Positions 1-13,871 of a DNA stretch of 64,000 nucleotides are shown here, one piece after another. This DNA is from Escherichia coli. Its GTDB lineage: Bacteria > Pseudomonadota > Gammaproteobacteria > Enterobacterales > Enterobacteriaceae. The position numbers and the translations under genes were made by a program. The stretch lies in the NCBI RefSeq assembly GCF_050320075.1, contig NZ_CP190018.1. One strand, given 5' to 3'. Each line of letters opens with the position of its first letter. Positions within the stretch are counted from its first letter, which is position 1. Under the pieces are notes generated by a model. That model saw nothing but the letters and a program-made list of their open reading frames with translations, was not told the origin of the DNA and did no database searches.

Positions 1-2
1 AT

Positions 3-155
3 AACGTTAAGGGCGTTGCAGAGGGTTCTAAGGCCATCAGAATCACAACGGACCAACTGGAACTACTCAAAGCACAGTCCGCAGTAGCAGGTTGCTCAAT
101 GATTCAGGTGTTAAGCGCAAAGGTCCATCAATTAGCGGATAGGCTGGGGGTTTAA
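3..155 (+). CDS. 3' end of an unknown ORF running in from upstream of the window (partial, about 50 codons visible)
   Basis: Open frame from position 3 with no stop until TAA at 153-155; that stop overlaps the ATG at 155 of the next ORF (TAATG). Not in the ORF track because it has no start inside the window. Confidence 0.3.
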   Translation, partial: NVKGVAEGSKAIRITTDQLELLKAQSAVAGCSMIQVLSAKVHQLADRLGV

Positions 156-580
156 TGCTATGCACATTTGATTATCATGCGTTTTATCGCCATAGAGGCC
201 ACCTTGTCCGTGAGAATAGCGGAACATGGAAAGATTTAACTCGTAATGCTGAACCCTTCACACACCAGCAATTAAAATCCCGCTTCTCCAGATGGAAGAA
301 TGCACCAGCAGATACTGGTGATTTTGAGATTATCCATACCTTCGATTATGCCTCAGAAGATGACCTTCACGATGCAATTAAGCTGATTGAAGACTTCAAT
401 ACCTCAGAAGATGTGGATGGTGACAAATATAAATCCCGTGGTAACCGCTATAACCGTGATGATATCACTCAGGCCATAAATGCTGGTCAATCTCAGCGAT
501 ACATTACAGAAAAATATGGTATTTCACGGAGACAGTATTTCTACGTTAAATCATTGATTAATAAAGACAATTCAAAATAA
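155..580 (+). CDS. hypothetical protein, 141 aa, with a C-terminal helix-turn-helix-like segment
   Basis: ORF-track ORF; ATG overlaps the upstream stop (TAATG); C-terminal stretch DDITQAINAGQSQRYITEKYGISRRQYFYV resembles a DNA-binding HTH; AT-rich codon usage like the rest of the element. Confidence 0.5.
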   Translation: MLCTFDYHAFYRHRGHLVRENSGTWKDLTRNAEPFTHQQLKSRFSRWKNAPADTGDFEIIHTFDYASEDDLHDAIKLIEDFNTSEDVDGDKYKSRGNRYNRDDITQAINAGQSQRYITEKYGISRRQYFYVKSLINKDNSK

Positions 581-717
581 CCATCTCAGTAACGGTAGAA
601 TGCACTTTACAGGCAGAGTTGCACCTTAATTTGATAAATTACCTTACCAGCCAGTGCAACTCCCTCTGTAACCCGCATGATTACTGGTCTCAGAATGGCT
701 ATTTTAAGAGGTCTGAG

Positions 718-1065
718 ATGTGTTTTGTAGGAGATTTAAAAATGAACAACTTCCCATTACAGATTTTCGTTGATAACGACACCGCTATGATGGTGCAAAG
801 CTTCAGTGATGCAGGTATTAGCATTGATTTTGACAGGCTGTTAAAGCTAATGGCTGATAATGAAGAAAACGTCTCTGACTTTATTCACTCGGTGGAGTTT
901 AACGAGCCTCGAATGATGTTACCAATTACAGACAGTAATATGAAAAGATTGGTTATTGAGCAAACGAACAAATACAGTATTTCCCCAGAGCAATTTTTGA
1001 AAGGTGCTGTGACAATCCTGTACAGCGATAATATTTTGGTTACGGATTCCGTGAGGGTTCACTAA
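718..1065 (+). CDS. hypothetical protein, about 115 aa (alternative start at 742)
   Basis: ORF-track ORF 619..1065 begins at a TTG; a better start is ATG 718 preceded by AAGAGG (706-711), or ATG 742 preceded by GGAG. No recognisable motif. Confidence 0.45.
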   Translation: MCFVGDLKMNNFPLQIFVDNDTAMMVQSFSDAGISIDFDRLLKLMADNEENVSDFIHSVEFNEPRMMLPITDSNMKRLVIEQTNKYSISPEQFLKGAVTILYSDNILVTDSVRVH

Positions 1066-1142
1066 TGGGCTTAATAATTGCTTGGACGTTGCTTGGCTTA
1101 TTTGTTGGTTGCTGGGTAGGCAGCACAGTAAATAGAAATTGA
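1065..1142 (+). CDS. candidate 25-aa hydrophobic micro-protein (MGLIIAWTLLGLFVGCWVGSTVNRN)
   Basis: ATG at 1065-1067 overlaps the TAA stop of the preceding ORF (TAATG); a single predicted transmembrane stretch followed by a polar tail; too short to appear in the ORF track. Confidence 0.3.
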   Translation: MGLIIAWTLLGLFVGCWVGSTVNRN

Positions 1143-1166
1143 TGTTACCAATCTGTTAAAAAGCTG

Positions 1167-1195
1167 TTGACAAATAACCTTAAGCATGAGATGAT
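1167..1195 (+). promoter_or_regulatory. sigma70-like promoter candidate (TTGACA, 17-bp spacer, TGn-GATGAT)
   Basis: Perfect -35 hexamer TTGACA at 1167-1172, 17-bp spacer, TG at 1187-1188 and a weak -10 GATGAT at 1190-1195; followed immediately by a short GAGAG/CTCTC hairpin and a T-run. Confidence 0.35.
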
Positions 1196-1359
1196 GGTAA
1201 TAGGGGAGAGCAACTCTCTCTTATTTTTCTTTCAAAATAATCCGATGGATGGATATTCTGAATTGGAAAGGTGCAATGCTTTTCGTCATGGCCTTTCAGT
1301 TTAGTCTGAGAGGCTATCTCAAAAAGTGCTTAATCATTCATTGAACCCTTTACAGCTTT

Positions 1360-1388
1360 GCCCTAACTCATGATTAGGGCTTTCTTTA
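1360..1388 (+). terminator. intrinsic-terminator-like hairpin (GCCCTAA / TTAGGGC) followed by TTTCTTT
   Basis: Perfect 7-bp inverted repeat at 1360-1366 and 1374-1380 with a 7-nt loop, then a U-rich tract. Confidence 0.4.
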
Positions 1389-1636
1389 AGAGTTTTTAAA
1401 CAGAGCTTTTAAAGAAAGTTTTTCCTGAAACTTCGTTAACGTTAAAGCAAACCTTCAAAGCCCTTCACAGATGAGGATGATTCCATGAATATCCGAATCA
1501 CCTATGTTTAGGGCTTTTTTCAGCTTTTAAAAAGCATACTTGGCAAACGCCTTTTAAGCCTCTTCTAAGTTCGAGGATGTCAGGTGTGCTTTTTAAAAAC
1601 TGAAACATAAATTATCTTAGAAGAGGAAAGGTATTA

Positions 1637-2341
1637 ATGGCTATCCGTGATGAAAATGAAATGATTATTGAAAACAAACCAAGTGCACTTGATATTCACG
1701 AATTAAGTTTGCGTGAATCTTTTGATAGAGCTTGGCGGGAATCACACGAAGTAAATAAAGGTCCATATATTCCACCAGAACCACTCGAGATTCCAAGAGT
1801 TGAAATTGATTTTTCTATGAACGAACGGTGTGAACTTGATTTGAAGTTGAAGCTACAACGCCGATATTTCCAAGCTATTAAAGACTCTCAAGAAGCAATG
1901 AGAAGTGTTTATGAGAAAATTCAGTCCAAGCTTGAAGACGAAATTGACGAAATGGCTATTTTGATGGAGCTTCAAACCAATCCTTATGCTTATTTCTCTC
2001 GACTAGACCGTGACGGTTGGGGGTATGACCCTGTAGAGATTGGTAAAGTGATTGCAGATTTACCAGAAGGTCAAAGGGTTATTCGTACGGAAAGGGCCAT
2101 CAGAGCGCCACATCAACTGTCTCTAATTGTTGCTGATAAATCACAAGCTGAGCTTGAAGAAATTGCCAAAGAGAAACTGATGAAAGCAAGAGAAAATGAG
2201 ATTAATTTGCTGAAATCAAGACTGGCTAAGCTGATTAGTGACCATCAAGCGCTGGCTAAGGAGTACCGTCAAGAGTTGGCACAGATTATCAGCTTCAATG
2301 ATTTTCTGAGTGTTCCACGAGAATTTAGCAAGGCTGTTTGA
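1637..2341 (+). CDS. hypothetical acidic protein, 234 aa
   Basis: Strong RBS (AGAGGAAAGG) 7 nt upstream of the ATG; glutamate- and lysine-rich with an apparently helical C-terminal half; no motif recognised. Confidence 0.6.
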   Translation: MAIRDENEMIIENKPSALDIHELSLRESFDRAWRESHEVNKGPYIPPEPLEIPRVEIDFSMNERCELDLKLKLQRRYFQAIKDSQEAMRSVYEKIQSKLEDEIDEMAILMELQTNPYAYFSRLDRDGWGYDPVEIGKVIADLPEGQRVIRTERAIRAPHQLSLIVADKSQAELEEIAKEKLMKARENEINLLKSRLAKLISDHQALAKEYRQELAQIISFNDFLSVPREFSKAV

Positions 2342-2364
2342 TTATGAATTAAAAGAGGTGATTA

Positions 2365-2583
2365 ATGTATGAAGACCGTTTGGAAACTATCAAGGCAGTT
2401 TGTGAAAAACTTAAAAACCAACCACGTAAACCAAAAACGGTAAAGAGTAAGCATCAGCCTGTCACCTCAAACAGCAAAATAAAGATTCGCAAAATTCCTT
2501 CGTGGTGCATTGACCGTATTCCGGTTGGTTCAAGAATTATTCGTGAAGATGGTGATTATCATTGGGTATCAGTTGTTGGTTAG
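2365..2583 (+). CDS. hypothetical small basic protein, 72 aa
   Basis: RBS AAAGAGGTGA upstream of the ATG; lysine/arginine-rich; followed by an intrinsic terminator. Confidence 0.5.
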   Translation: MYEDRLETIKAVCEKLKNQPRKPKTVKSKHQPVTSNSKIKIRKIPSWCIDRIPVGSRIIREDGDYHWVSVVG

Positions 2584-2598
2584 TTAGTAAAAATCTAC

Positions 2599-2638
2599 GG
2601 GAGAGATTATCGAGTGATATCGGTAGCTCTCCCTTTTT
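2599..2638 (+). terminator. rho-independent terminator
   Basis: GGGAGAG (2599-2605) pairs with CTCTCCC (2627-2633), followed by TTTTT. Confidence 0.55.
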
Positions 2639-2671
2639 CGTATATGAACACTTAAGAGGTGAAAAATATGA

Positions 2672-4804
2672 ATGAGCAAATTCACAGTTGATAGTTTTAT
2701 CGTTGAATTAAGCTTCAATGAAAACATTATTAAGGGCTTGCAAAGAGTTGAAAAGGCAGCTTTGCAGTCAGCACAAAGAATTGAAAAGAACCTAAATAAA
2801 GGTTTCAGGATTAATACAAAGCAGCTTGATAGTAATTTAACGGCTTCTTTAGGGCAGCTTGAAAGGAAGTTTAATAAGGCCTTTGACAAGATTGAACAGA
2901 GAGCAAGAAATACTAAAGCTTTCCAGTTTACCACCAGATTTAATGACACTGTTAATCCTCCAAAACAACCGAGACAGCCACGAATTAGCGGCAACAGAGC
3001 AATCACAGCAGCTTACTCAGCGAATATGAGCAAGCTAAAAGGCTTTGACCCTATTTTGCAGAAATACATCAAATCTCAGTTTTACGGGCTATCTGCTAAA
3101 GCCGGTTCAATGGATTCTTCAAAATTCAATGAGAAGTTAGCTCAGTTAAACGCTTCAGTCAGAGAAGCAATTGCTAAAGCCAGAGGTCATACATCCACCA
3201 GCATTAATGGTGACAGAGCAGCTAATAGTCTTGATAACCTGTCTTCAGCAGCAGTTAAAACAGCAGGTGCATTTATCTCAATGCAGGCTGTATTAGCCAG
3301 TTATCAGAAGATTATGGAAATTGGTTTACAGCGTGCAAGTGCTGAACGTTCAATTGATTTCGTATTTGATAAAGATGCAGGTCAAGTAAAAGAGTTCACA
3401 AAGTCATTAGCTCAAACAACGGGTTTAGATATCGCTGAACTGCAATCACAGTTTGCTGGTTTTGGTGCTTCAGCTAAAGAGTCTATGGGCATTCAAGGTT
3501 CTGAAGAACTTTTTAAAAATATGATTGGCTATGCTCGTCTGATGGGGAGAAGTGAAGAAGAGATTAAGCGAGCACTGACAGCATTATCACAGATGGCTGG
3601 TAAGGGTCAGGTTATGGCTGAAGAGCTTAAGGGGCAATTAGCTGAAGCTGTTCCTGGTATGGTTCAGGTATTCGCTAAAGCAACCGGAAGGAATGAACAA
3701 GAGCTATTTGATGCCATGAAGAAGGGGGCTTTAAAATCTGCCGATACTCTTCAGAAGGTCACTCAGGAACTGAATAAACAAATCACCGCTAAAGGTGGCT
3801 GGAAAGCTATTTCAGAAAGTACACAGGCACAACTAGGGAACCTGAAAAACTCTTGGAATACCACGCTTGATAGTATCTTCAGAGGTTCTGAAGATGGTCT
3901 GCAAGATTTTACAAGAAGCTTAACAACGCTTTTAAACGCTCTTGGTGGAAGTGGTAAAAGTCTTGGTGAATCTCTTGGTAGTCTCATGACTTCTATGTCA
4001 CATGGTGTCGATTCATTGACTGATATCAGCTACAGGGTAAGAGCATTCTTCGATGAGGTGACATTAGCTTACCGTTCACTAAATGACACTCAGAAAAAAA
4101 TTGTTGATGGTTTATCTGATGGGTTAATTGATGGTTTGAAGATGCTTGCCGTAGCTGTTACTGCTCAAAAGGCTGCAAATGTAGCTGGAGGCTTGTTAAA
4201 CCTTGCAAATGCTGTTACTTCATTCGGTGATGCTGTTAATAAAGCTAAAGCTGGCAAGGCTGGTTCTTCAGGTGGTGCGCTAAATAAAGTTGGTAGAGTT
4301 GTTCTTTATGCTGAGTTGGTGAACTTTGCTCTTGATAATTTAAACCCTGAAGCGGCTAAGAATCCGAACTTACACCAATCAGGTATTGGAACAGAGACAA
4401 ACTTCAACCCTGAATACAAAGGCGATTCATCTAAACCAAACCAAATTAATGATGGATGGGCTAAGATTGGTAGTTCTATCGCTGACTGGTTTAATGGTGC
4501 GGCTAATAAAATTGCTAACTTCCAAGACCCGATGAATAACTTTGTTAATAACACACAATCAACTCCACCAGCTATCACAGGTGACATGGTTAATAGCAAT
4601 GCTCAACTTGCTATGGCTGTATCAGAGTTAGGAAGAAAGGTAGACGCTTTAACAGTAGAAGCTAAGAAGCCTTTATCAGTTAATATCAAAGGTGAAGCAA
4701 TTGTTAGACCGGATGAACCAGCTTTCTTTACTTTCAATCAATCAGCTAATGACCAGTTCACGCAGGATATGCTCTTAAGTTCAAGCTATCCAGAGGAAGA
4801 ATGA
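2672..4804 (+). CDS. phage tail tape-measure-domain protein (TMP-like), 710 aa
   Basis: RBS AAGAGGTG upstream; helical, alanine/glycine/lysine-rich; the segment ALTALSQMAGKGQVMAEELKGQLAEAVPGMVQVFAKATGRNEQELFDAMKKGALKSADTLQKV matches, from memory, the conserved core of phage tape-measure proteins. Confidence 0.6.
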   Translation: MSKFTVDSFIVELSFNENIIKGLQRVEKAALQSAQRIEKNLNKGFRINTKQLDSNLTASLGQLERKFNKAFDKIEQRARNTKAFQFTTRFNDTVNPPKQPRQPRISGNRAITAAYSANMSKLKGFDPILQKYIKSQFYGLSAKAGSMDSSKFNEKLAQLNASVREAIAKARGHTSTSINGDRAANSLDNLSSAAVKTAGAFISMQAVLASYQKIMEIGLQRASAERSIDFVFDKDAGQVKEFTKSLAQTTGLDIAELQSQFAGFGASAKESMGIQGSEELFKNMIGYARLMGRSEEEIKRALTALSQMAGKGQVMAEELKGQLAEAVPGMVQVFAKATGRNEQELFDAMKKGALKSADTLQKVTQELNKQITAKGGWKAISESTQAQLGNLKNSWNTTLDSIFRGSEDGLQDFTRSLTTLLNALGGSGKSLGESLGSLMTSMSHGVDSLTDISYRVRAFFDEVTLAYRSLNDTQKKIVDGLSDGLIDGLKMLAVAVTAQKAANVAGGLLNLANAVTSFGDAVNKAKAGKAGSSGGALNKVGRVVLYAELVNFALDNLNPEAAKNPNLHQSGIGTETNFNPEYKGDSSKPNQINDGWAKIGSSIADWFNGAANKIANFQDPMNNFVNNTQSTPPAITGDMVNSNAQLAMAVSELGRKVDALTVEAKKPLSVNIKGEAIVRPDEPAFFTFNQSANDQFTQDMLLSSSYPEEE

Positions 4805-4967
4805 TTTCTTATATATCCGTGTGCTACGTGATTTCTTCTGAACAGATATACCCACTAAAAATTATTTTTTACGTAGCTCACGCTTAACAGAGAAAATACT
4901 TATATATCAAAGGCTTGGTTAAAAATGATTAAAATACACTAAGCCTTTGAAATCAAAGGAGAATTTA

Positions 4968-5741
4968 ATGATTTACTCTAATCAGATTCGTTACAGTGGT
5001 AAAGATGGCGTTTACTTTCATCTACAAGGCCAGCCAGATAATTTCTTGTCACTATCAGCTACTGAGAACATGGAATTTGACAGCCCTATGATGGTTACCA
5101 CTCAAAATATGCAATCAGGGCAGACTGTCACAGATAATGTAATGCGTTCACCCAGAACTATTTCAATCAGTGGTGTGGTTGTAGTTGGTGAATCCGGTAG
5201 TATCCTTATCTCAAGAGATAATAAGCTGGTGGAAAACTTCATAGACACTCTTGAAAACTGGCGTGACCAGAAGCAAATTATCTCAGTTGTCTGTAAAGAT
5301 GGTATTAAGATTGACGACTCAATTATTACAAACTTTAAAGCCTCTAAAGATGTTGGTATTGCCAATGGTCTTAGAATCCAATTAACTTTTCAGGAAATTA
5401 ACTTTAAAGCTATTGTGGGTCAGACTGATATCTCGGCTGCGACCGGAAGGACTTCTACCACAAGTGATGGTGGTGCTACCAGTAAAAAGAATACAGGGAA
5501 CACTACGACAAGCTTAGGTAACGGTATGTTGATGTGTCAGGAGCTATATAATCGCTCTACGAGTGAACTTACTAATGAGCAACTTCAAGCCCGTATCAAT
5601 TGTGGTAAAAATGTCAGAGTTAAGAACGGAAAAAGCACCTTCTCAGATGCCGCTAATGAGCAAGCTTCAAAGGTGCTTAATAATGCTGGTACAGGTAGTA
5701 CTTTGAAGAAGTATTCTGTTAATCCTAACAAGCGATACTGA
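4968..5741 (+). CDS. hypothetical protein, 257 aa; possibly a distal-tail-like protein, judged only by position after the tape-measure gene
   Basis: ORF-track ORF 4947..5741 begins at a TTG; preferred start is ATG 4968 preceded by AAGGAG. The N-terminal half looks beta-strand-rich and the C-terminal half is Ser/Thr/Gly/Asn-rich. Confidence 0.5.
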
Positions 5742-5755
5742 CGATAGAATCTCAA

Positions 5756-7279
5756 CTATATGATAACCTCATCAACATCTATTAAACCCCTCTCAGTGAC
5801 TTCAGAAAGCGACTGTATAGCCTCTGTAACGTTGTCTGAGGGGTTTTCTGTTATTGGTAAGGTGATTGCTTTACCGTTGTGAAAAGTTACTTTACAGCGA
5901 CGTTTAGCAGTATTTAAAACGACCTCTTTAACAGCACTTTTGATTATCAGTTGTGCTTCAATCCTTCCCGCCTTTGTAGTCAAGTCACAATCAGACAAAC
6001 AACCCACATCAATAGATTTAAGGCGTTGTGTCTCCTTCTCGATATCCGCATCAACTTGTGATAGCTCATTCTTTAGTTGTCTTAGTTTGCTGGTAATAGC
6101 GGACAAGTCTTCAATTTCAAGTGATAGCTGTACCAGCTTTTCAATATTGCTTGAGATGTGTTCACGGTGTAGCTTCAGTGTGTCTATGGTATTCGTCATA
6201 TCGCTATCAAATCGGTCAAGACGAGATAGCAGGGCAAGCAATGTACCATCGGTTTGCTTACGTGAAAGTCCTTTAGCACTACAACGGTTTTCATTACGAA
6301 GAGGACAACGATAAATCCCGTTTCTTGTATCGCTAAAGCCTGTGATAATCAAAGCATGACCACATTCAGAACAACGGATAACACCTTTGAAAAGATTCAC
6401 AGCCATTGGCTTATCTGAAGCAGGTTTTCTACCGTAACGAGCATATGATAGTTGTTGAACTTTGTAGAATGTTGTTTCATCTATAATTGCAGGATAATAA
6501 CCAGATATCTCCTCACAGCCTTTAGGTGTGAAGTAACCAATTACAGAGCGATTCTTCAAAAGGTCTTGCACTGAGGTTTGACCAAACTTACCTGCTTTGT
6601 ACTGGTTAAGCGTCTGGTGACCTTCAGCATTAAGAGTTCTGACAATCTCCCAGATAGACTTACCCTCTAACCGTAGCTGAAAGCACCTCTTCACAGTCTC
6701 CACTTTCTCAGGTATCACAGAGAAGCTTTTACGGTCATCATTAAGCTTAAGCCATGCAGGACAACGCCTAGAAATCTTGATACCAGCTTTAGCAGCTTCT
6801 TTCTTTGCATCCCATGCAGCTTGTATACGCTCAGCCTTACGTAATGATTCCTCATGCGCCCTTTGCATTATCAAAATGCTTTTAATCAGAGCTAACGGGT
6901 CTTTAAGAGATTCCCTTGTGTAATGTTCACCATCGGACAGGGTGACTACATCTACACCAGAGCGAAGAATGTTTCTGAGTAGCTCACTTGCTTGGTCTAC
7001 GTCCTGACGTGAGAGACGGTCTAAACTCTCGATTAGTAGTGTATCACCAGCTTTAACAAGCCCTTTCTCGATAGCGGTTAAAAAGTCACCTAAGCCACCT
7101 TTCAAGTGCTTACCAGTGAACCCGCTAACGCCTAAATCACGAAAAGTAAGGGATTCATCCAGATAGTACTCAGGATGAGCCTTAAGCCAATCAGTGACCA
7201 TCTTAGCCTGTCGTCTTAATGAGTCGCCTCTGGATTGCTTCTCAGATGAAAACCGGATGTAACTGATTGCACGTTTCAT
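5756..7279 (-). CDS. large serine recombinase (phage-type serine integrase), 507 aa
   Basis: N-terminal resolvase-type catalytic domain (ISYIRFSSEKQSRGDSL...LLIESLDRLSRQ), a central recombinase region, a cysteine-rich zinc-ribbon-like motif (CSECGHALIITG...YRCPLRNENRCSAKG) and a coiled-coil C-terminus; convergent with the cargo genes and adjacent to the host junction. Confidence 0.85.
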   Translation of the reverse strand: MKRAISYIRFSSEKQSRGDSLRRQAKMVTDWLKAHPEYYLDESLTFRDLGVSGFTGKHLKGGLGDFLTAIEKGLVKAGDTLLIESLDRLSRQDVDQASELLRNILRSGVDVVTLSDGEHYTRESLKDPLALIKSILIMQRAHEESLRKAERIQAAWDAKKEAAKAGIKISRRCPAWLKLNDDRKSFSVIPEKVETVKRCFQLRLEGKSIWEIVRTLNAEGHQTLNQYKAGKFGQTSVQDLLKNRSVIGYFTPKGCEEISGYYPAIIDETTFYKVQQLSYARYGRKPASDKPMAVNLFKGVIRCSECGHALIITGFSDTRNGIYRCPLRNENRCSAKGLSRKQTDGTLLALLSRLDRFDSDMTNTIDTLKLHREHISSNIEKLVQLSLEIEDLSAITSKLRQLKNELSQVDADIEKETQRLKSIDVGCLSDCDLTTKAGRIEAQLIIKSAVKEVVLNTAKRRCKVTFHNGKAITLPITENPSDNVTEAIQSLSEVTERGLIDVDEVII

Positions 7280-7346
7280 TGTTCACCTCACCAATAGCAG
7301 TTGGGCTTGTACCAACCCCTAGATTGTATCGCTTTAGATGGTGTAT

Positions 7347-7841
7347 TTAAACGTGTCTAATAAAAATCACCCGATTAACGCCGCGCTGATGTAAACCGCG
7401 ATTAAGCGTTTGTTCCTCTTCCCCTTTGGCGAAAAACTGTGGATGGCGGACTTCCACACCATAATTAAATTCGCCGGGAAGGGAATCGAGAAAATGCCAA
7501 AGCGCAGGCAGATCCCGTGGGCCAAATGTGGCAGGCAGTTGCAGCCAGTATTGCCCAATGCGCGGCGCTAACGGTGACATGCGGGTCAAAAATTCAGTCA
7601 CTAAATCATCGCAATGCCGTAATGCTGCCTGATGCGAAATGGTCGCCGGAAACTTAAAACAGAAGCGAAAATTATCTGTGGTCTGCTCACGCCAGCGCAG
7701 GACAACCTCGGATTTCGGCAGGGCGTAAAGCGTGGTGTTGCCCTCCACACAGTTAAAGTGGCGGGCATACTCTTCAAGGCTGGTGATCCCCAACCGCACC
7801 CATTTAGGATGCGACCATTGCGGCAGACCGATGTAAATCAT
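7347..7841 (-). pseudogene. yecE: yecE (DUF72 family), 5' portion only: reading frame interrupted by the insertion
   Basis: N-terminus [29 protein letters not shown] matches recalled YecE; the frame stops after 164 codons (intact YecE is about 272 aa from memory) exactly where GC-rich host sequence changes to the AT-rich element. Confidence 0.7.
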
Positions 7842-8404
7842 AATGCGTTGAGGATCTCTTCCACACTGCGCACACGGGCGATGCGTGGGTAGATATGGTT
7901 GATGCTGTTATTGTGCTGCTCGGCGCTGGCGGCGCTGCAGGCGTCTTCGGCAATCACCAGATTAAAACCGAGTTCCCAGGCATTGCGGGCGGTGGATTCA
8001 ACACCGATATTGGTCGAGATCCCACATAATACTATTGTATCGATACCCCGGCGGCGTAATTGCAACTCCAGATCTGTACCGTAAAACGCCCCCCACTGAC
8101 GTTTGATGATTTCGATATCACTGTCAGTTGCACCTAATGCAGCAGGATGTTGCCACCAGTTTTCGGGCAACACTTTAGCGGGGGAAGGGGCATCAACCGG
8201 CTGTTTTAATGCTTCGGCGTAATCGGCAGACCAGCCAACGCGCACCAGAAACACGGGCTGACCGCTGGCGCGAAATTTCACCGCCAGCTTCCCGGCGCGA
8301 TTAACCACCTCATCGGCAGTATGTGGACCTCCGGCAAAAGGTAAGATGCCTTCTTGTAAATCAATCACCACCAGCGCGGTGGTTTTAGCATTAAGTTCAA
8401 GCAT
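7838..8404 (-). CDS. yecD: isochorismatase-family hydrolase YecD
   Basis: [23 protein letters not shown]...; ORF-track ORF trimmed to the internal Met that gives a 188-aa product. Confidence 0.85.
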
Positions 8405-8713
8405 GATGACTCCTGACAAAACAAAATCGTGCCTCTCACCTTAATGCGATTAGCCGATGGCGGAACGACAAATTTTGTTAATTTTTATGAGTTCGGGCAA
8501 CACCTTTATAGCAAACTGGCGTAGAGTCTGATTTCAGGCCCGATATAAAGTGGTAACGAGGCGTTCCAGCGCGGGCCAGACTCTTACGGTGCGGCAGAAT
8601 TTCCAGTATAATAGCCGCCTTTTTTCATTCAGTTGTGACATACAGCTAACGCTGCGACTTGGTCACCTGCGCAGCAGGGGGCATCCGCCGGCAGCTAAGT
8701 TAAGGGATATCTC

Positions 8714-10486
8714 ATGCGTACAGAATATTGTGGACAGCTCCGTTTGTCCCACGTGGGGCAGCAGGTGACTCTGTGTGGTTGGGTCAACCGTCGTCGTGAT
8801 CTTGGTAGCCTGATCTTCATCGATATGCGCGACCGCGAAGGTATCGTGCAGGTATTTTTCGATCCGGATCGTGCGGACGCGTTAAAGCTGGCCTCTGAAC
8901 TGCGTAATGAGTTCTGCATTCAGGTCACGGGCACCGTACGTGCGCGTGACGAAAAAAATATTAACCGCGATATGGCGACTGGCGAAATCGAAGTACTGGC
9001 GTCCTCGCTGACTATCATCAACCGTGCAGATGTTCTGCCGCTTGACTCTAACCACGTCAACACCGAAGAAGCGCGTCTGAAATACCGCTACCTCGACCTG
9101 CGTCGCCCGGAAATGGCTCAGCGCCTGAAAACCCGCGCTAAAATCACCAGCCTGGTGCGCCGTTTTATGGATGACCACGGCTTCCTCGACATCGAAACTC
9201 CGATGCTGACCAAAGCCACGCCGGAAGGCGCGCGTGACTACCTGGTGCCTTCTCGTGTGCACAAAGGTAAATTCTACGCACTGCCGCAATCCCCACAGTT
9301 GTTCAAACAGCTGCTGATGATGTCCGGCTTTGACCGTTACTATCAGATCGTTAAATGCTTCCGTGACGAAGACCTGCGCGCTGATCGTCAGCCTGAATTT
9401 ACTCAGATCGATGTGGAAACTTCTTTCATGACCGCGCCGCAAGTGCGTGAAGTGATGGAAGCGCTGGTGCGTCATCTGTGGCTGGAAGTGAAGGGCGTGG
9501 ATCTGGGCGATTTCCCGATAATGACCTTTGCGGAAGCAGAACGCCGTTATGGTTCTGATAAACCGGATCTGCGTAACCCGATGGAACTGACTGACGTTGC
9601 CGATCTGCTGAAATCTGTTGAATTTGCAGTATTTGCAGGTCCGGCGAACAATCCGAAAGGGCGCGTTGCCGCTCTGCGTGTTCCGGGTGGCGCATCGCTG
9701 ACCCGTAAGCAGATCGACGAATACGGTAACTTCGTTAAAATCTACGGCGCGAAAGGTCTGGCTTACATCAAAGTTAACGAACGCGCGAAAGGTCTGGAAG
9801 GTATCAACAGCCCGGTAGCGAAGTTCCTTAATGCAGAAATCATCGAAGCCATCCTGGATCGTACTGCCGCGCAAGATGGCGATATGATTTTCTTCGGTGC
9901 CGACAACAAGAAAATTGTTGCCGACGCGATGGGCGCACTGCGCCTGAAAGTGGGTAAAGACCTTGGTCTGACCGACGAAAGCAAATGGGCACCGCTGTGG
10001 GTTATCGATTTCCCGATGTTTGAAGACGACGGTGAAGGCGGCCTGACGGCAATGCACCATCCGTTCACCTCACCGAAAGACATGACTGCTGCAGAACTGA
10101 AAGCTGCACCAGAAAATGCGGTGGCGAACGCTTACGATATGGTCATCAATGGTTACGAAGTGGGCGGTGGTTCTGTGCGTATCCATAATGGTGATATGCA
10201 GCAGACGGTGTTTGGTATTCTGGGTATCAACGAAGAGGAACAGCGCGAGAAATTCGGCTTCCTGCTCGACGCCCTGAAATACGGTACTCCGCCGCACGCA
10301 GGTCTGGCATTCGGTCTTGACCGTCTGACGATGCTGCTGACCGGCACCGACAATATCCGTGACGTTATCGCCTTCCCGAAAACCACGGCGGCGGCGTGTC
10401 TGATGACTGAAGCACCGAGCTTTGCTAACCCGACTGCACTGGCTGAGCTGAGCATTCAGGTTGTGAAGAAGGCAGAGAATAACTGA
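8714..10486 (+). CDS. aspS: aspartate--tRNA ligase
   Basis: 590-aa ORF with class II aminoacyl-tRNA synthetase motifs ([28 protein letters not shown]). Confidence 0.95.
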
Positions 10487-10603
10487 TATGACTCAAATAC
10501 ACGAAATCATTCGCGTTGCATCGAGGCGGCAACTGAGTGAACTCCCATGAGCATAGATAACTATGTGAATGGGATGAGCGAAGGCAGTCAACGAAGAGGC
10601 AGC

Positions 10604-11056
10604 GTGAAGGATAAAGTGTATAAGCGTCCCGTTTCGATCTTAGTGGTCATCTATGCGCAAGATACGAAACGGGTGCTGATGTTGCAGCGGCGTGACGATC
10701 CCGATTTCTGGCAGTCGGTAACCGGCAGCGTGGAAGAGGGTGAAACCGCGCCGCAAGCTGCCATGCGCGAAGTAAAGGAAGAGGTCACCATCGATGTTGT
10801 CGCTGAACAACTGACCTTAATTGACTGTCAGCGCACGGTAGAATTTGAAATTTTTTCACATTTACGTCATCGCTATGCGCCGGGCGTGACGCGTAATACG
10901 GAATCATGGTTCTGTCTTGCGCTCCCGCACGAACGCCAGGTCGTCTTCACTGAACATCTGGCCTACAAGTGGCTTGATGCGCCTGCTGCGGCGGCGCTCA
11001 CTAAGTCCTGGAGCAACCGGCAGGCGATTGAACAGTTTGTAATTAACGCTGCCTGA
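10604..11056 (+). CDS. nudB: dihydroneopterin triphosphate diphosphatase (Nudix hydrolase)
   Basis: Nudix box [21 protein letters not shown]; GTG start chosen to give the 150-aa product. Confidence 0.85.
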
Positions 11057-12382: not shown

Positions 12383-12985
12383 TTATACCGCCTCGGTCAG
12401 TTCCGGCTGAGGCGTTTCCACTCCCTCCGCATGAATCAACACCAAACCCGGATGATGCCACAAACTGGCTGGCGTGACGGTTTTACGCTCCCACGGAATA
12501 GAACCCAGGAACCAGAATTTCCAGAAAGTGAGTTTTGCATTCGGATTGCTATTTAACAATTCTCCAAACGTCTCTATTTCACCCACCGGAATACATAGCG
12601 CCTCTTTATAAATATCAAAAACAAATTTTGAACAGAACTGGCGCGAAGATTCGTATTTAAAACCGGTGTGGTAAAGTTTGCGTAGCCGGGAGGGAACCTG
12701 TTCAACAATTCGTTGTTTTTGTTGTTCTGTCAGCCCAGCGTCTAATCGCTTTATAGCATAGCGTTGATTAGACGAACGTTTAATAAAACGAGATAGCGTG
12801 GTGATGGTTGAAAGGGGAACCCGGCTTTCTGCAACCAGGAAGTCTTCACCGTTATGACCGATAATGATCCCGACGTGATTACTCCAGCAATTTGATGCAG
12901 CTGATATTTGACCAAATAAGGCAGCACCTATACATGTAAAGACGATATCTCCAATTTCATATTCAGCAGGGTAATTAATATTCAC
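12383..12985 (-). CDS. yebB: DUF830-family protein YebB
   Basis: ORF-track ORF trimmed to a GTG start ([16 protein letters not shown]...) that gives about 200 aa; start assignment is uncertain. Confidence 0.7.
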
Positions 12986-13259
12986 GTTGTCATTCCATTG
13001 AAATAGATACGAATATACGTAATAGCATAAAAAATTTATTTTTTCAGGAGGCGCAATGTATATTTTTATTACGCATTTCTTCACTGAATATGTAATATTA
13101 AAATATTTGCTTCCAATATAACCTGTAGAACAAATTATACTGTGCCATTTTTCAGATCATCGGGACACCTCGCAAGTTTTCTTCATCCTTCGCTGGATAT
13201 CTATCCAGCATTTTTTTATCATACAGCATTATCTTTGATTCATTACGCAGGAGCGTCAT

Positions 13260-13871
13260 GTGATAGGCAGACTCAGAGGCATCATCATTGAAAAACAACC
13301 CCCGCTGGTGTTAATTGAAGTGGGCGGCGTAGGCTATGAAGTGCATATGCCGATGACCTGTTTTTATGAACTCCCTGAAGCGGGTCAGGAAGCGATCGTT
13401 TTCACCCACTTTGTGGTGCGTGAAGACGCGCAACTGCTGTACGGTTTTAACAATAAACAAGAGCGCACATTGTTCAAAGAGTTGATCAAAACCAACGGCG
13501 TCGGCCCGAAGTTAGCGCTGGCGATCCTCTCCGGAATGTCAGCGCAGCAGTTCGTTAATGCCGTTGAGCGTGAAGAAGTGGGGGCACTGGTGAAACTGCC
13601 GGGTATTGGCAAAAAAACCGCCGAACGCTTGATTGTTGAAATGAAAGACCGATTTAAAGGTTTGCATGGCGATCTCTTTACGCCAGCCGCCGACCTGGTA
13701 CTCACGTCTCCTGCCAGCCCGGCGACCGACGATGCTGAACAAGAAGCGGTTGCCGCGCTGGTGGCGCTGGGCTATAAACCACAAGAAGCAAGCCGCATGG
13801 TGAGCAAAATCGCTCGCCCTGACGCCAGCAGTGAAACATTAATTCGCGAAGCCCTACGCGCCGCGTTATGA
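13260..13871 (+). CDS. ruvA: Holliday junction branch-migration complex subunit RuvA
   Basis: [28 protein letters not shown]. Confidence 0.95.

Follow-up and report, generated by a model that had tools for sequence, protein, structure and literature searches.

To our knowledge, only one system of satellites of strictly virulent phages has been studied in depth, the PLEs of Vibrio cholerae with their helper phage ICP1, and we know of no PLE that carries a gene for a tape measure protein (TMP) or a tail-tube initiator (TI). In Escherichia coli, 224 putative satellites linked to Justusliebigvirus-type phages have been described (Barth et al. 2023, PMC10055350), in which a TMP and a baseplate component are accompanied by capsid and decoration genes, a RepA_N initiator and, mostly, a tyrosine integrase at a tRNA. 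Here we analyze an integrative element that lies in yecE at the left end of a 64,000-nucleotide stretch of the E. coli contig NZ_CP190018.1 (assembly GCF_050320075.1), hereafter the window. The element encodes a TMP and a TI related to those of virulent Felix-O1-like myoviruses (Felixounavirus), and we consider it probable that it is a helper-dependent integrative satellite with such a phage as its helper. The family to which it belongs most likely represents previously undescribed satellites of Felix-O1-type virulent phages. Our literature search, which covered what is available without subscription, found no report linking satellites to Felixounavirus or Ounavirinae, or to serine recombinases at yecE.

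Among the described systems, the PLEs are the closest in lifestyle. They are small integrative islands with a large serine recombinase (LSR) and a strictly virulent myovirus helper (as we infer for the element), their own replication initiator and origin, mostly orphan genes, and replication modules that are swapped. However, no common genes were detected beyond the recombinase class (PLE-like PHROG or NCBIfam matches were absent), the PLE initiator is of the RepA_N type whereas that of the element is HTH_36/lambda-O-like (a weak match), and host, helper and attachment (att) site differ. P4, whose helper is P2, is likewise integrative and ~11-12 kb long; it has its own replicon, a copy of the helper packaging site and a hotspot for defense cargo, to which the putative replicon, the candidate packaging site and the left-end slot of the element may correspond. 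Unlike the element, it has a tyrosine integrase, capsid-size redirection (Sid, Psu) and a temperate helper whose genome has cos ends. PHROGs, NCBIfam and Pfam detected none of the P4 genes (sid, psu, delta, cos) in the element. PICIs and cfPICIs resemble the element as chromosomal islands that depend on helper components and hold a partial virion gene set. However, PICIs have a tyrosine integrase, alpA, pri-rep, and terS or a full capsid module, none of which was detected in the element, and cfPICIs make capsids and steal tails, whereas the element is predicted to make two tail-core proteins and no capsid. Judged by gene content, the element is not P4-like, a PICI or a cfPICI. The family of Barth et al. 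is the closest cargo precedent, consisting of att-flanked E. coli elements with a TMP and a baseplate component in the absence of most tail genes, a link to virulent myoviruses and modular Rep domains. In contrast to that family, the present element is devoid of capsid genes, its Rep is unrelated, it and its relatives use LSRs at yecE or tonB, and its TMP and TI derive from Felixounavirus; the accessions of the yecE/tonB family are not in the supplement of that study (PMC10055350).

Results

The element is integrated in yecE

The locus was delimited in E. coli YZLc1-3, a chicken isolate that is 100% identical to the window over positions 1-7400 and differs from it at only two positions across 27.4 kb (window 13439 and 19773); the human isolate Ec-U3 is nearly identical over 1-7400. 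The YZLc1-3 locus, including 20 kb on each side, is called L001, and a window position equals the L001 position minus 20000. The element spans 12,232 bp (L001 15131-27362) between two copies of AAAATCA that split yecE, and the right 60% of it lies inside the window. An earlier note, made from the letters of the window alone, had described a phage-like element cut by the window start, and the second junction is indeed found in YZLc1-3, with the partner (distal) yecE fragment 12.2 kb leftward (L001 14784-15131). At 12,232 bp the whole element is too small for a prophage. The phage relation proposed in that note stood. Size and type had been left open there; neither a full prophage nor a random remnant fits what was found, a compact 12.2-kb element with a putative replicon of its own.

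The sharp difference from the GC-rich core on the right, also pointed out earlier, was clear in the composition: GC is 39% in window 1-7362 against 51% in the host, running at 0.35-0.45 across 1-7250 and at 0.50-0.56 from ~7500. The GC content of the whole element is 0.386 (38.6%), compared with 38.9% in the Felixounavirus phage and 0.51 in both host flanks. A second low-GC patch (0.36-0.41) at window 12500-13400 is no island but reflects two core genes, yebB and yobI.

When both junctions were aligned to the intact yecE of K-12, the crossover core was the 7-bp AAAATCA at window 7363-7369. The same alignment gave attB as GGCTGTCTAAAATCACCCGATT, attL as ...CTAAAATCA/TCAAGG... and attR as ...AATAAAAATCA/CCCGAT.... 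In the window, attR comprises the element arm and the core (7280-7369), followed by the 5' fragment of the integration target yecE (DUF72; 7365-7841, − strand, annotated as a pseudogene fragment), yecD and then aspS. The element end thus falls at 7362/7369 rather than at the 7375 given earlier. Next to attR lies a gene on the − strand (5756-7279) for a 507-aa recombinase with Resolvase (E 4e-19), Recombinase (E 3e-15) and zinc-ribbon (Zn_ribbon_recom, E 7e-7) domains, which identify it as an LSR; it matches the PHROG 95 integrase (E 9e-79), and the motif YIRFSSEKQ is visible near its N-terminus. Between its start codon and the core there are 83 nt, whereas a distance of 67 bp to the junction had been stated. 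The exact LSR protein occurs in 586 blocks of the sequence collection, and yecE was the site in 10 of 10 places among the matches listed (the 24 longest contigs).

A ~400-bp yecE duplication matching window 7363-7764 is present in phages converting for the Shiga toxins Stx1a, Stx2a and Stx2d (e.g. LC567819, LC567829). We rejected these matches as a sign of kinship with the element, since they are due only to the yecE duplications of those phages. The duplications do mark yecE as a shared integration hotspot, and occupancy of yecE by the element might affect Stx-phage lysogeny.

A search of metagenome contigs for the predicted attP junction (26 nt) gave one match, in a contig of 11,473 bp from ERZ1090866. 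This contig represents a circularly permuted family member whose ends are joined at the exact predicted attP and which lacks host flank, and its order (rep, Dam, left end, attP, LSR, TI, TMP, and back to rep) indicates a putative excised circle or concatemer. Element-sized contigs with variants of the element gene p234 (L019-L021) were considered as free forms and rejected, as they are integrated or partial.

At least 80% of window 1-7400 is covered in 14 of 5,426 complete E. coli genomes, and related mosaics occur in 500 of them (~9%), all chromosomal, with up to 4 per genome. Most E. coli genomes thus lack the cargo; its occurrence in a core-genome context would have spoken against the earlier reading. 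The family occupies two or more sites, with the arm formed by p234, p72, TMP and TI constant and the left modules swapped. The yecE members have at least two left-module versions joined to one p234-p72-TMP-TI-LSR arm, and the members at yciI/tonB, including that of enterotoxigenic E. coli E24377A, keep the gene order but differ in their LSR, and their left slot holds a small resolvase.

Two tail-core genes tie the element to Felixounavirus

Virion-protein matches in the element were confined to exactly two genes. The first, at 2672-4804 (+), encodes a 710-aa TMP (PHROG 4036, E 1e-79) that matches the "Tape measure protein (gp017)" of phage Bas63 (PDB 9ndy_F, E 4e-65). The second, at 4968-5741 (+), encodes a 257-aa protein annotated as 'phage baseplate protein' (Pfam Dit_like) that matches the "Tube initiator protein (gp018)" of the same structure over residues 5-256 (PDB 9ndy_A, E 6e-114). 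The TMP had been noticed before as the only cargo open reading frame (ORF) with a recognizable motif; the assignment stands, but "only" does not, since the ORF at 4968-5741 is recognizable as the tube initiator of Felixounavirus. No capsid, portal, terminase, sheath, tube, hub or wedge gene was found in the element by annotation, PHROGs or comparison with the phage.

The sole nucleotide-level phage matches to the element itself are to Felixounavirus-type virulent myoviruses, at ~80-84% identity over the TI gene. The order TMP-TI is collinear with the TMP and gp18 genes of Felixounavirus; the two genes abut in the phage, whereas in the element they are separated by a 163-nt intergenic spacer (4805-4967) without a counterpart in the phage. 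The TI shares 71.5% aa identity with gp119 of phage garuso, and the identity is unevenly distributed: 90-96% to the phage in the tube-like domain against 23-56% in the C-terminal extension. The TMP of this element is 66% identical to that of garuso over aa 1-47 and 35% over aa 199-478, and its last 30 nt are 97% identical. Across the family, the TMP N-terminus is 57-80% identical to garuso and the middle 15-40%, the latter being mosaic among elements; the C-terminal end SSYPE(E/D)E is present in 6 of 6 element TMPs, four of which have the full LLSSSYPEEE of the phage. No other element protein matches garuso, and no fragments of other structural genes were detected.

In the cryo-electron microscopy structure of Bas63, gp18 is the TI, which forms a hexamer, makes the transition from the C3 hub to the C6 tube and has a C-terminal extension of ~100 aa, and the last ~25 TMP residues contact the hub and the puncture apparatus (PMC12609058). 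Read against this structure, the alignments suggest that the element keeps exactly the TMP and TI parts that dock in Bas63, namely the TMP ends and the TI tube domain. The dN/dS ratios, both among elements and against the phage, are 0.20-0.28 for TMP and 0.10-0.20 for TI, indicating that both genes are evidently under purifying selection. The two proteins may serve for helper tail-core substitution or for dominant-negative interference, which are not mutually exclusive.

An IS66 or IS21 insertion interrupts the TI gene of some genomes (L006 14356-17579 in E. coli E24377A, with IS66; L015), so that not every copy is intact. Such disruption, together with an AT-rich, integrated and phage-related sequence, might be expected of a decayed temperate Felix-like prophage that has retained its integrase, replication genes and two tail genes. 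This explanation is very improbable, because it does not account for the recurrence, in hundreds of genomes, of one compact architecture combined with different LSRs at different sites, for the purifying selection on TMP and TI, or for the joined-ends form. Moreover, the phage nucleotide matches are all to virulent Felixounavirus-type phages, a search of 50,697 phage records turned up no full-length prophage in which these genes occur, and pieces of other structural genes are lacking.

A 74-nt sequence in the TMP-TI spacer (4819-4892) flanks the TMP gene on both sides in the tonB-locus relative L005. This layout suggests either a cassette boundary for TMP exchange or a promoter.

A non-coding match to the terminal-repeat boundary of the phage

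A 163-bp non-coding stretch of the element (L001 16934-17096) is collinear with a gene-free region of the phage (~71% identity, E 9e-9; 254 Felixounavirus-type records on the phage side) and was found in every family member fetched. It lies in the ~1.1-kb non-coding region between the genes for p306 and a Dam-type methyltransferase, left of the window. Phages of this group have short direct terminal repeats (DTRs), according to PhageTerm results (PMC11737134), and a 613-bp T7-like DTR has been reported (PMC6454146). The record of MET-P1-301 has a 544-bp repeat at both ends, a 581-bp DTR is annotated in Pr103Blw, and the distal terminus is common to three phage records, which start or end there. 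The proximal DTR boundaries of MET-P1-301 and Pr103Blw are 15 nt apart and fall inside the matching stretch, at the equivalent of L001 16969-16984.

Around this boundary, the blocks GATATTT..TTGCAAAG, CAGATATTTTTGA and TTTTATAAAAATTT.AGA..CTG..A.TT.CTGTACAG are conserved in phages and divergent elements, and the spacers between them are not conserved. The blocks contain a short, AT-rich repeated motif, the copies of which are ~130 bp apart and occur in the phage only around the DTR. The 163-bp stretch is a candidate terminase recognition or cleavage site, the alternative being a phage-responsive regulatory site.

Two further non-coding segments were observed in this region. L001 16322-16566 is rich in TATATA-type repeats and is ~80% conserved in all family members, including the circular contig. 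L001 17132-17189, 60 nt upstream of the Dam gene, matches the divergent gp95/gp96 intergenic region of garuso over 58 nt (86%); it includes the palindrome GATATC-N7-GATATC and belongs to variant-A elements only.

The regulatory alternative holds that the shared blocks are phage-responsive promoters or operators by which infection is sensed, with mobilization proceeding by another route. The shortness, AT-richness and ~130-bp repetition of the blocks would suit such a role, as would the second match, which has its palindrome just upstream of the Dam operon and corresponds to a divergent intergenic region of the phage. However, in each of two independent phage records the collinear match falls on the DTR boundary, the motif is restricted to the surroundings of the DTR in the phage, and the blocks are without sigma-70 promoter features. 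We regard this alternative as improbable.

Replication module, orphan genes and accessory cargo

Left of the window, the element encodes a replication-initiator-like protein (Rep; 322 aa, L001 18277-19245) with matches to PHROGs 270/428/678 and Pfam HTH_36. Three tandem 23-nt iterons (ACCCAACCAAAAATTGGTTACCT, L001 18647-18715) lie inside the initiator-like gene and are followed by a stretch with a GC content of 0.22, a predicted lambda O/ori arrangement. The circular metagenome contig breaks within the same rep gene, at a different iteron set. Upstream of rep is the gene for the Dam-type methyltransferase, which has a C-terminal helix-turn-helix (L001 17250-17912; PHROG 111; orphan methyltransferase in PADLOC).

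As noted earlier, the element ORFs within the window are all on the + strand (155-580, 742-1065, 1637-2341, 2365-2583, 2672-4804 and 4968-5741) and converge on the LSR gene, which lies inside yecE. The earlier impression of mostly unfamiliar cargo also held: PHROGs, NCBIfam and Pfam gave no family matches for p96, p98, p107, p141, p234 or p72. The gene for p98 lies between rep and p96. p96 (96 aa, +; annotated in YZLc1-3), the 3' end of which is at 1-155 and the whole gene at L001 19865-20155, is cut by the window start and has only a weak ribbon-helix-helix/Omega-repressor-like match. p141 (155-580) has a weak C-terminal helix-turn-helix (HTH_28, residues 106-127, E 0.24), and p107 (742-1065) is kept in all E. 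coli-type family members. A 570-nt non-coding region (1066-1636) separates this left operon from the p234-p72-TMP-TI block; it contains terminator-like hairpins (1199-1225, 1360-1380) and an inverted repeat (1518-1545/1578-1605), and is 77-100% conserved in all family members fetched. An Rfam search of the whole element, this region included, found nothing credible.

The family-specific protein p234 (1637-2341, +) is modeled by AlphaFold2 as a coiled-coil hairpin with a small alpha/beta domain, and the model (pLDDT 75) gave no fold match (best E 0.46). Its homologues are confined to E. coli, Shigella, E. albertii and Citrobacter, E. albertii being the sole addition from a scan of species-representative genomes. 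A phage-type promoter motif, GCTTTTAAR, upstream of p234 was dropped, because its enrichment was weak and the null model inadequate. The small orphan p72 (2365-2583, +), directly upstream of the TMP gene, holds the position of the phage tape-measure chaperone and shows no sequence similarity to phage tape-measure chaperones.

The left-end slot, outside the window, carries the accessory gene p306 (L001 15219-16139, −), which has an invariant HEPN motif, RNSLLH; a HEPN RNase, for which p306 is a candidate, would show an Rx4-6H motif in an alpha-helical domain. This variable slot appears to carry accessory genes, and p306 may act in defense or interference. A defense-system search, which the earlier note had advised, was run with PADLOC on 10 element proteins and found no known defense system and one orphan methyltransferase only.

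These observations bear on the possibility that the element is a non-packaged anti-phage interference island, in which TMP and TI are dominant-negative decoys that dock on the Felixounavirus hub by their conserved termini and yield defective tails, to the benefit of the bacterial population, and which spreads by other means. Both the defense-like left-slot cargo, with the HEPN motif of p306, and the conservation of the interaction surfaces alongside a divergent, mosaic TMP middle and TI C-terminal baseplate-spanning extension would fit such an island. Satellites commonly interfere with their helpers, and in this respect the explanation overlaps with a satellite. However, it leaves the conserved DTR-boundary copy, the putative autonomous replicon and the spread to several att sites with different LSRs unexplained. 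PADLOC recognized no known system, and neither annotation nor PHROGs revealed conjugative or mobilization genes in the element that could explain the spread. We consider an island of this kind possible though unlikely.

A different element of ~10.5 kb is also present in yecE/DUF72 in Klebsiella variicola-type contigs (L027, ~470-11040, and L028). It contains a 518-aa LSR (48% identical to that in the window), a p306 homologue (79%) and a small resolvase. Its TMP, of 693 aa, is closest to those of Erwinia phiEa21-4/phiEa104-group phages (57% aa identity over the full length), and no TI homologue was detected in it. We take the Erwinia phiEa21-4 group to belong to the Ounavirinae as well, so that this TMP would be Ounavirinae-like.

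Several circular records in PLSDB touch on the TI and TMP cargo. The 13.7-kb record NZ_CP020521.1 (L029) fits the family of Barth et al.; its baseplate protein is a distant homologue of the element TI (18% identity, E 6e-5), and its Rep is unrelated to that of the element. NZ_CP020521.1, CP148565.1, NZ_CP035869.1 and NZ_CP043822.1 are circular E. coli 'plasmids' of 13.2-13.7 kb with a major capsid protein, a TI-like baseplate protein and a TMP, and fit the same family as episomes. One record of 39.6 kb has three TMP places and may be a trimer.

Discussion

Two features by which satellites are recognized are present in the element: an integrase with att sites and an excision form (the LSR, attL/attR/attB and the attP contig), and an incomplete set of virion and packaging genes (TMP and TI only). 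We favor a satellite of virulent Felix-O1-like phages because the element is discrete and integrative, has what appears to be its own replicon, lacks capsid and packaging genes and exists in a joined-ends form; because it has two tail-core genes of a virulent lineage, which retain the docking surfaces and are under purifying selection; and because the copy of the DTR boundary is conserved and the GC content is phage-like. The behavior of the family, in which left modules and LSRs change around a constant arm, also speaks for this reading, as do the TMP and TI-like cargo of the unrelated family of Barth et al. and the Ounavirinae-like TMP of the Klebsiella element. The alternatives discussed above overlap in part with this reading.

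Several points weigh against a satellite. The evidence is wholly computational; at that level it establishes the integration in yecE, the existence of attP, the homology to the phage with its pattern, and the distribution of the family. No excision factor, repressor, small terminase or capsid-size factor could be identified in the element. A second DTR boundary was sought in the element, and the match score equaled that of shuffled controls, so that only one of the two boundaries is mimicked; a role as promoters or regulator sites could also explain the non-coding blocks in common with the phage. The attP contig could stem from tandem integrated copies, and IMG/VR contained no attP, no Rep relatives and no free-contig copy, its only copies being integrated ones in predicted prophage regions. 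Finally, the Rep matches are weak (PHROGs 270/428/678, E 1e-7 to 3e-6; Pfam HTH_36, E 0.005), and no Odn-like nuclease with the DNA-binding N-domain of this Rep was found in Felixounavirus.

For a satellite of Felix-O1-like phages, the following cycle can be proposed. The element would be placed in yecE by its LSR, which the att sites and the joined-ends form support. On infection, it would be excised and replicated from its own lambda-O-type origin, as the initiator-like gene, the iterons and the AT-rich stretch suggest. Its TMP and TI would enter helper-built tails through the kept surfaces for hub, puncture apparatus and tube, where they would replace or compete with the phage TMP and TI. 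The helper terminase would recognize the copy of the DTR boundary and package the element DNA into helper capsids, and the resulting particle would inject the element into a new cell, in which the LSR would integrate it into yecE.

As a tentative and more specific proposal, this widespread family (~9% of E. coli genomes) may swap the TMP and TI of the helper for its own and copy one DTR boundary for packaging by the T7-like DTR terminase. Packaging would then possibly proceed as multimers, 12,232 bp being 1/7.01 of the helper genome, and the purpose of the swap might be control of DNA delivery, protection in the next host, or sabotage of helper tails.

A family member is present in ~1 in 11 complete E. 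coli genomes. Where Felixounavirus is used in typing, biocontrol or therapy, both efficacy and host range could therefore be influenced by these elements, which could also carry DNA from strain to strain. In addition, the family provides new LSRs with defined att sites (yecE; yciI/tonB), and its variable cargo slot is a source of uncharacterized candidate defense genes, such as the HEPN-motif p306. The presumed helpers (Felix O1, Bas63) are model and therapy phages that grow easily, and for this reason a tractable counterpart of the PLE/ICP1 system in E. coli would make the biology of virulent-phage satellites accessible to standard genetics. The presence of tail-core genes in two unrelated satellite families points to an unexplored role of TMP and TI in phage-satellite conflict and, if the satellite reading is true, TMP and TI cargo in an unrelated family suggests that tail-core substitution is general among satellites of virulent myoviruses.

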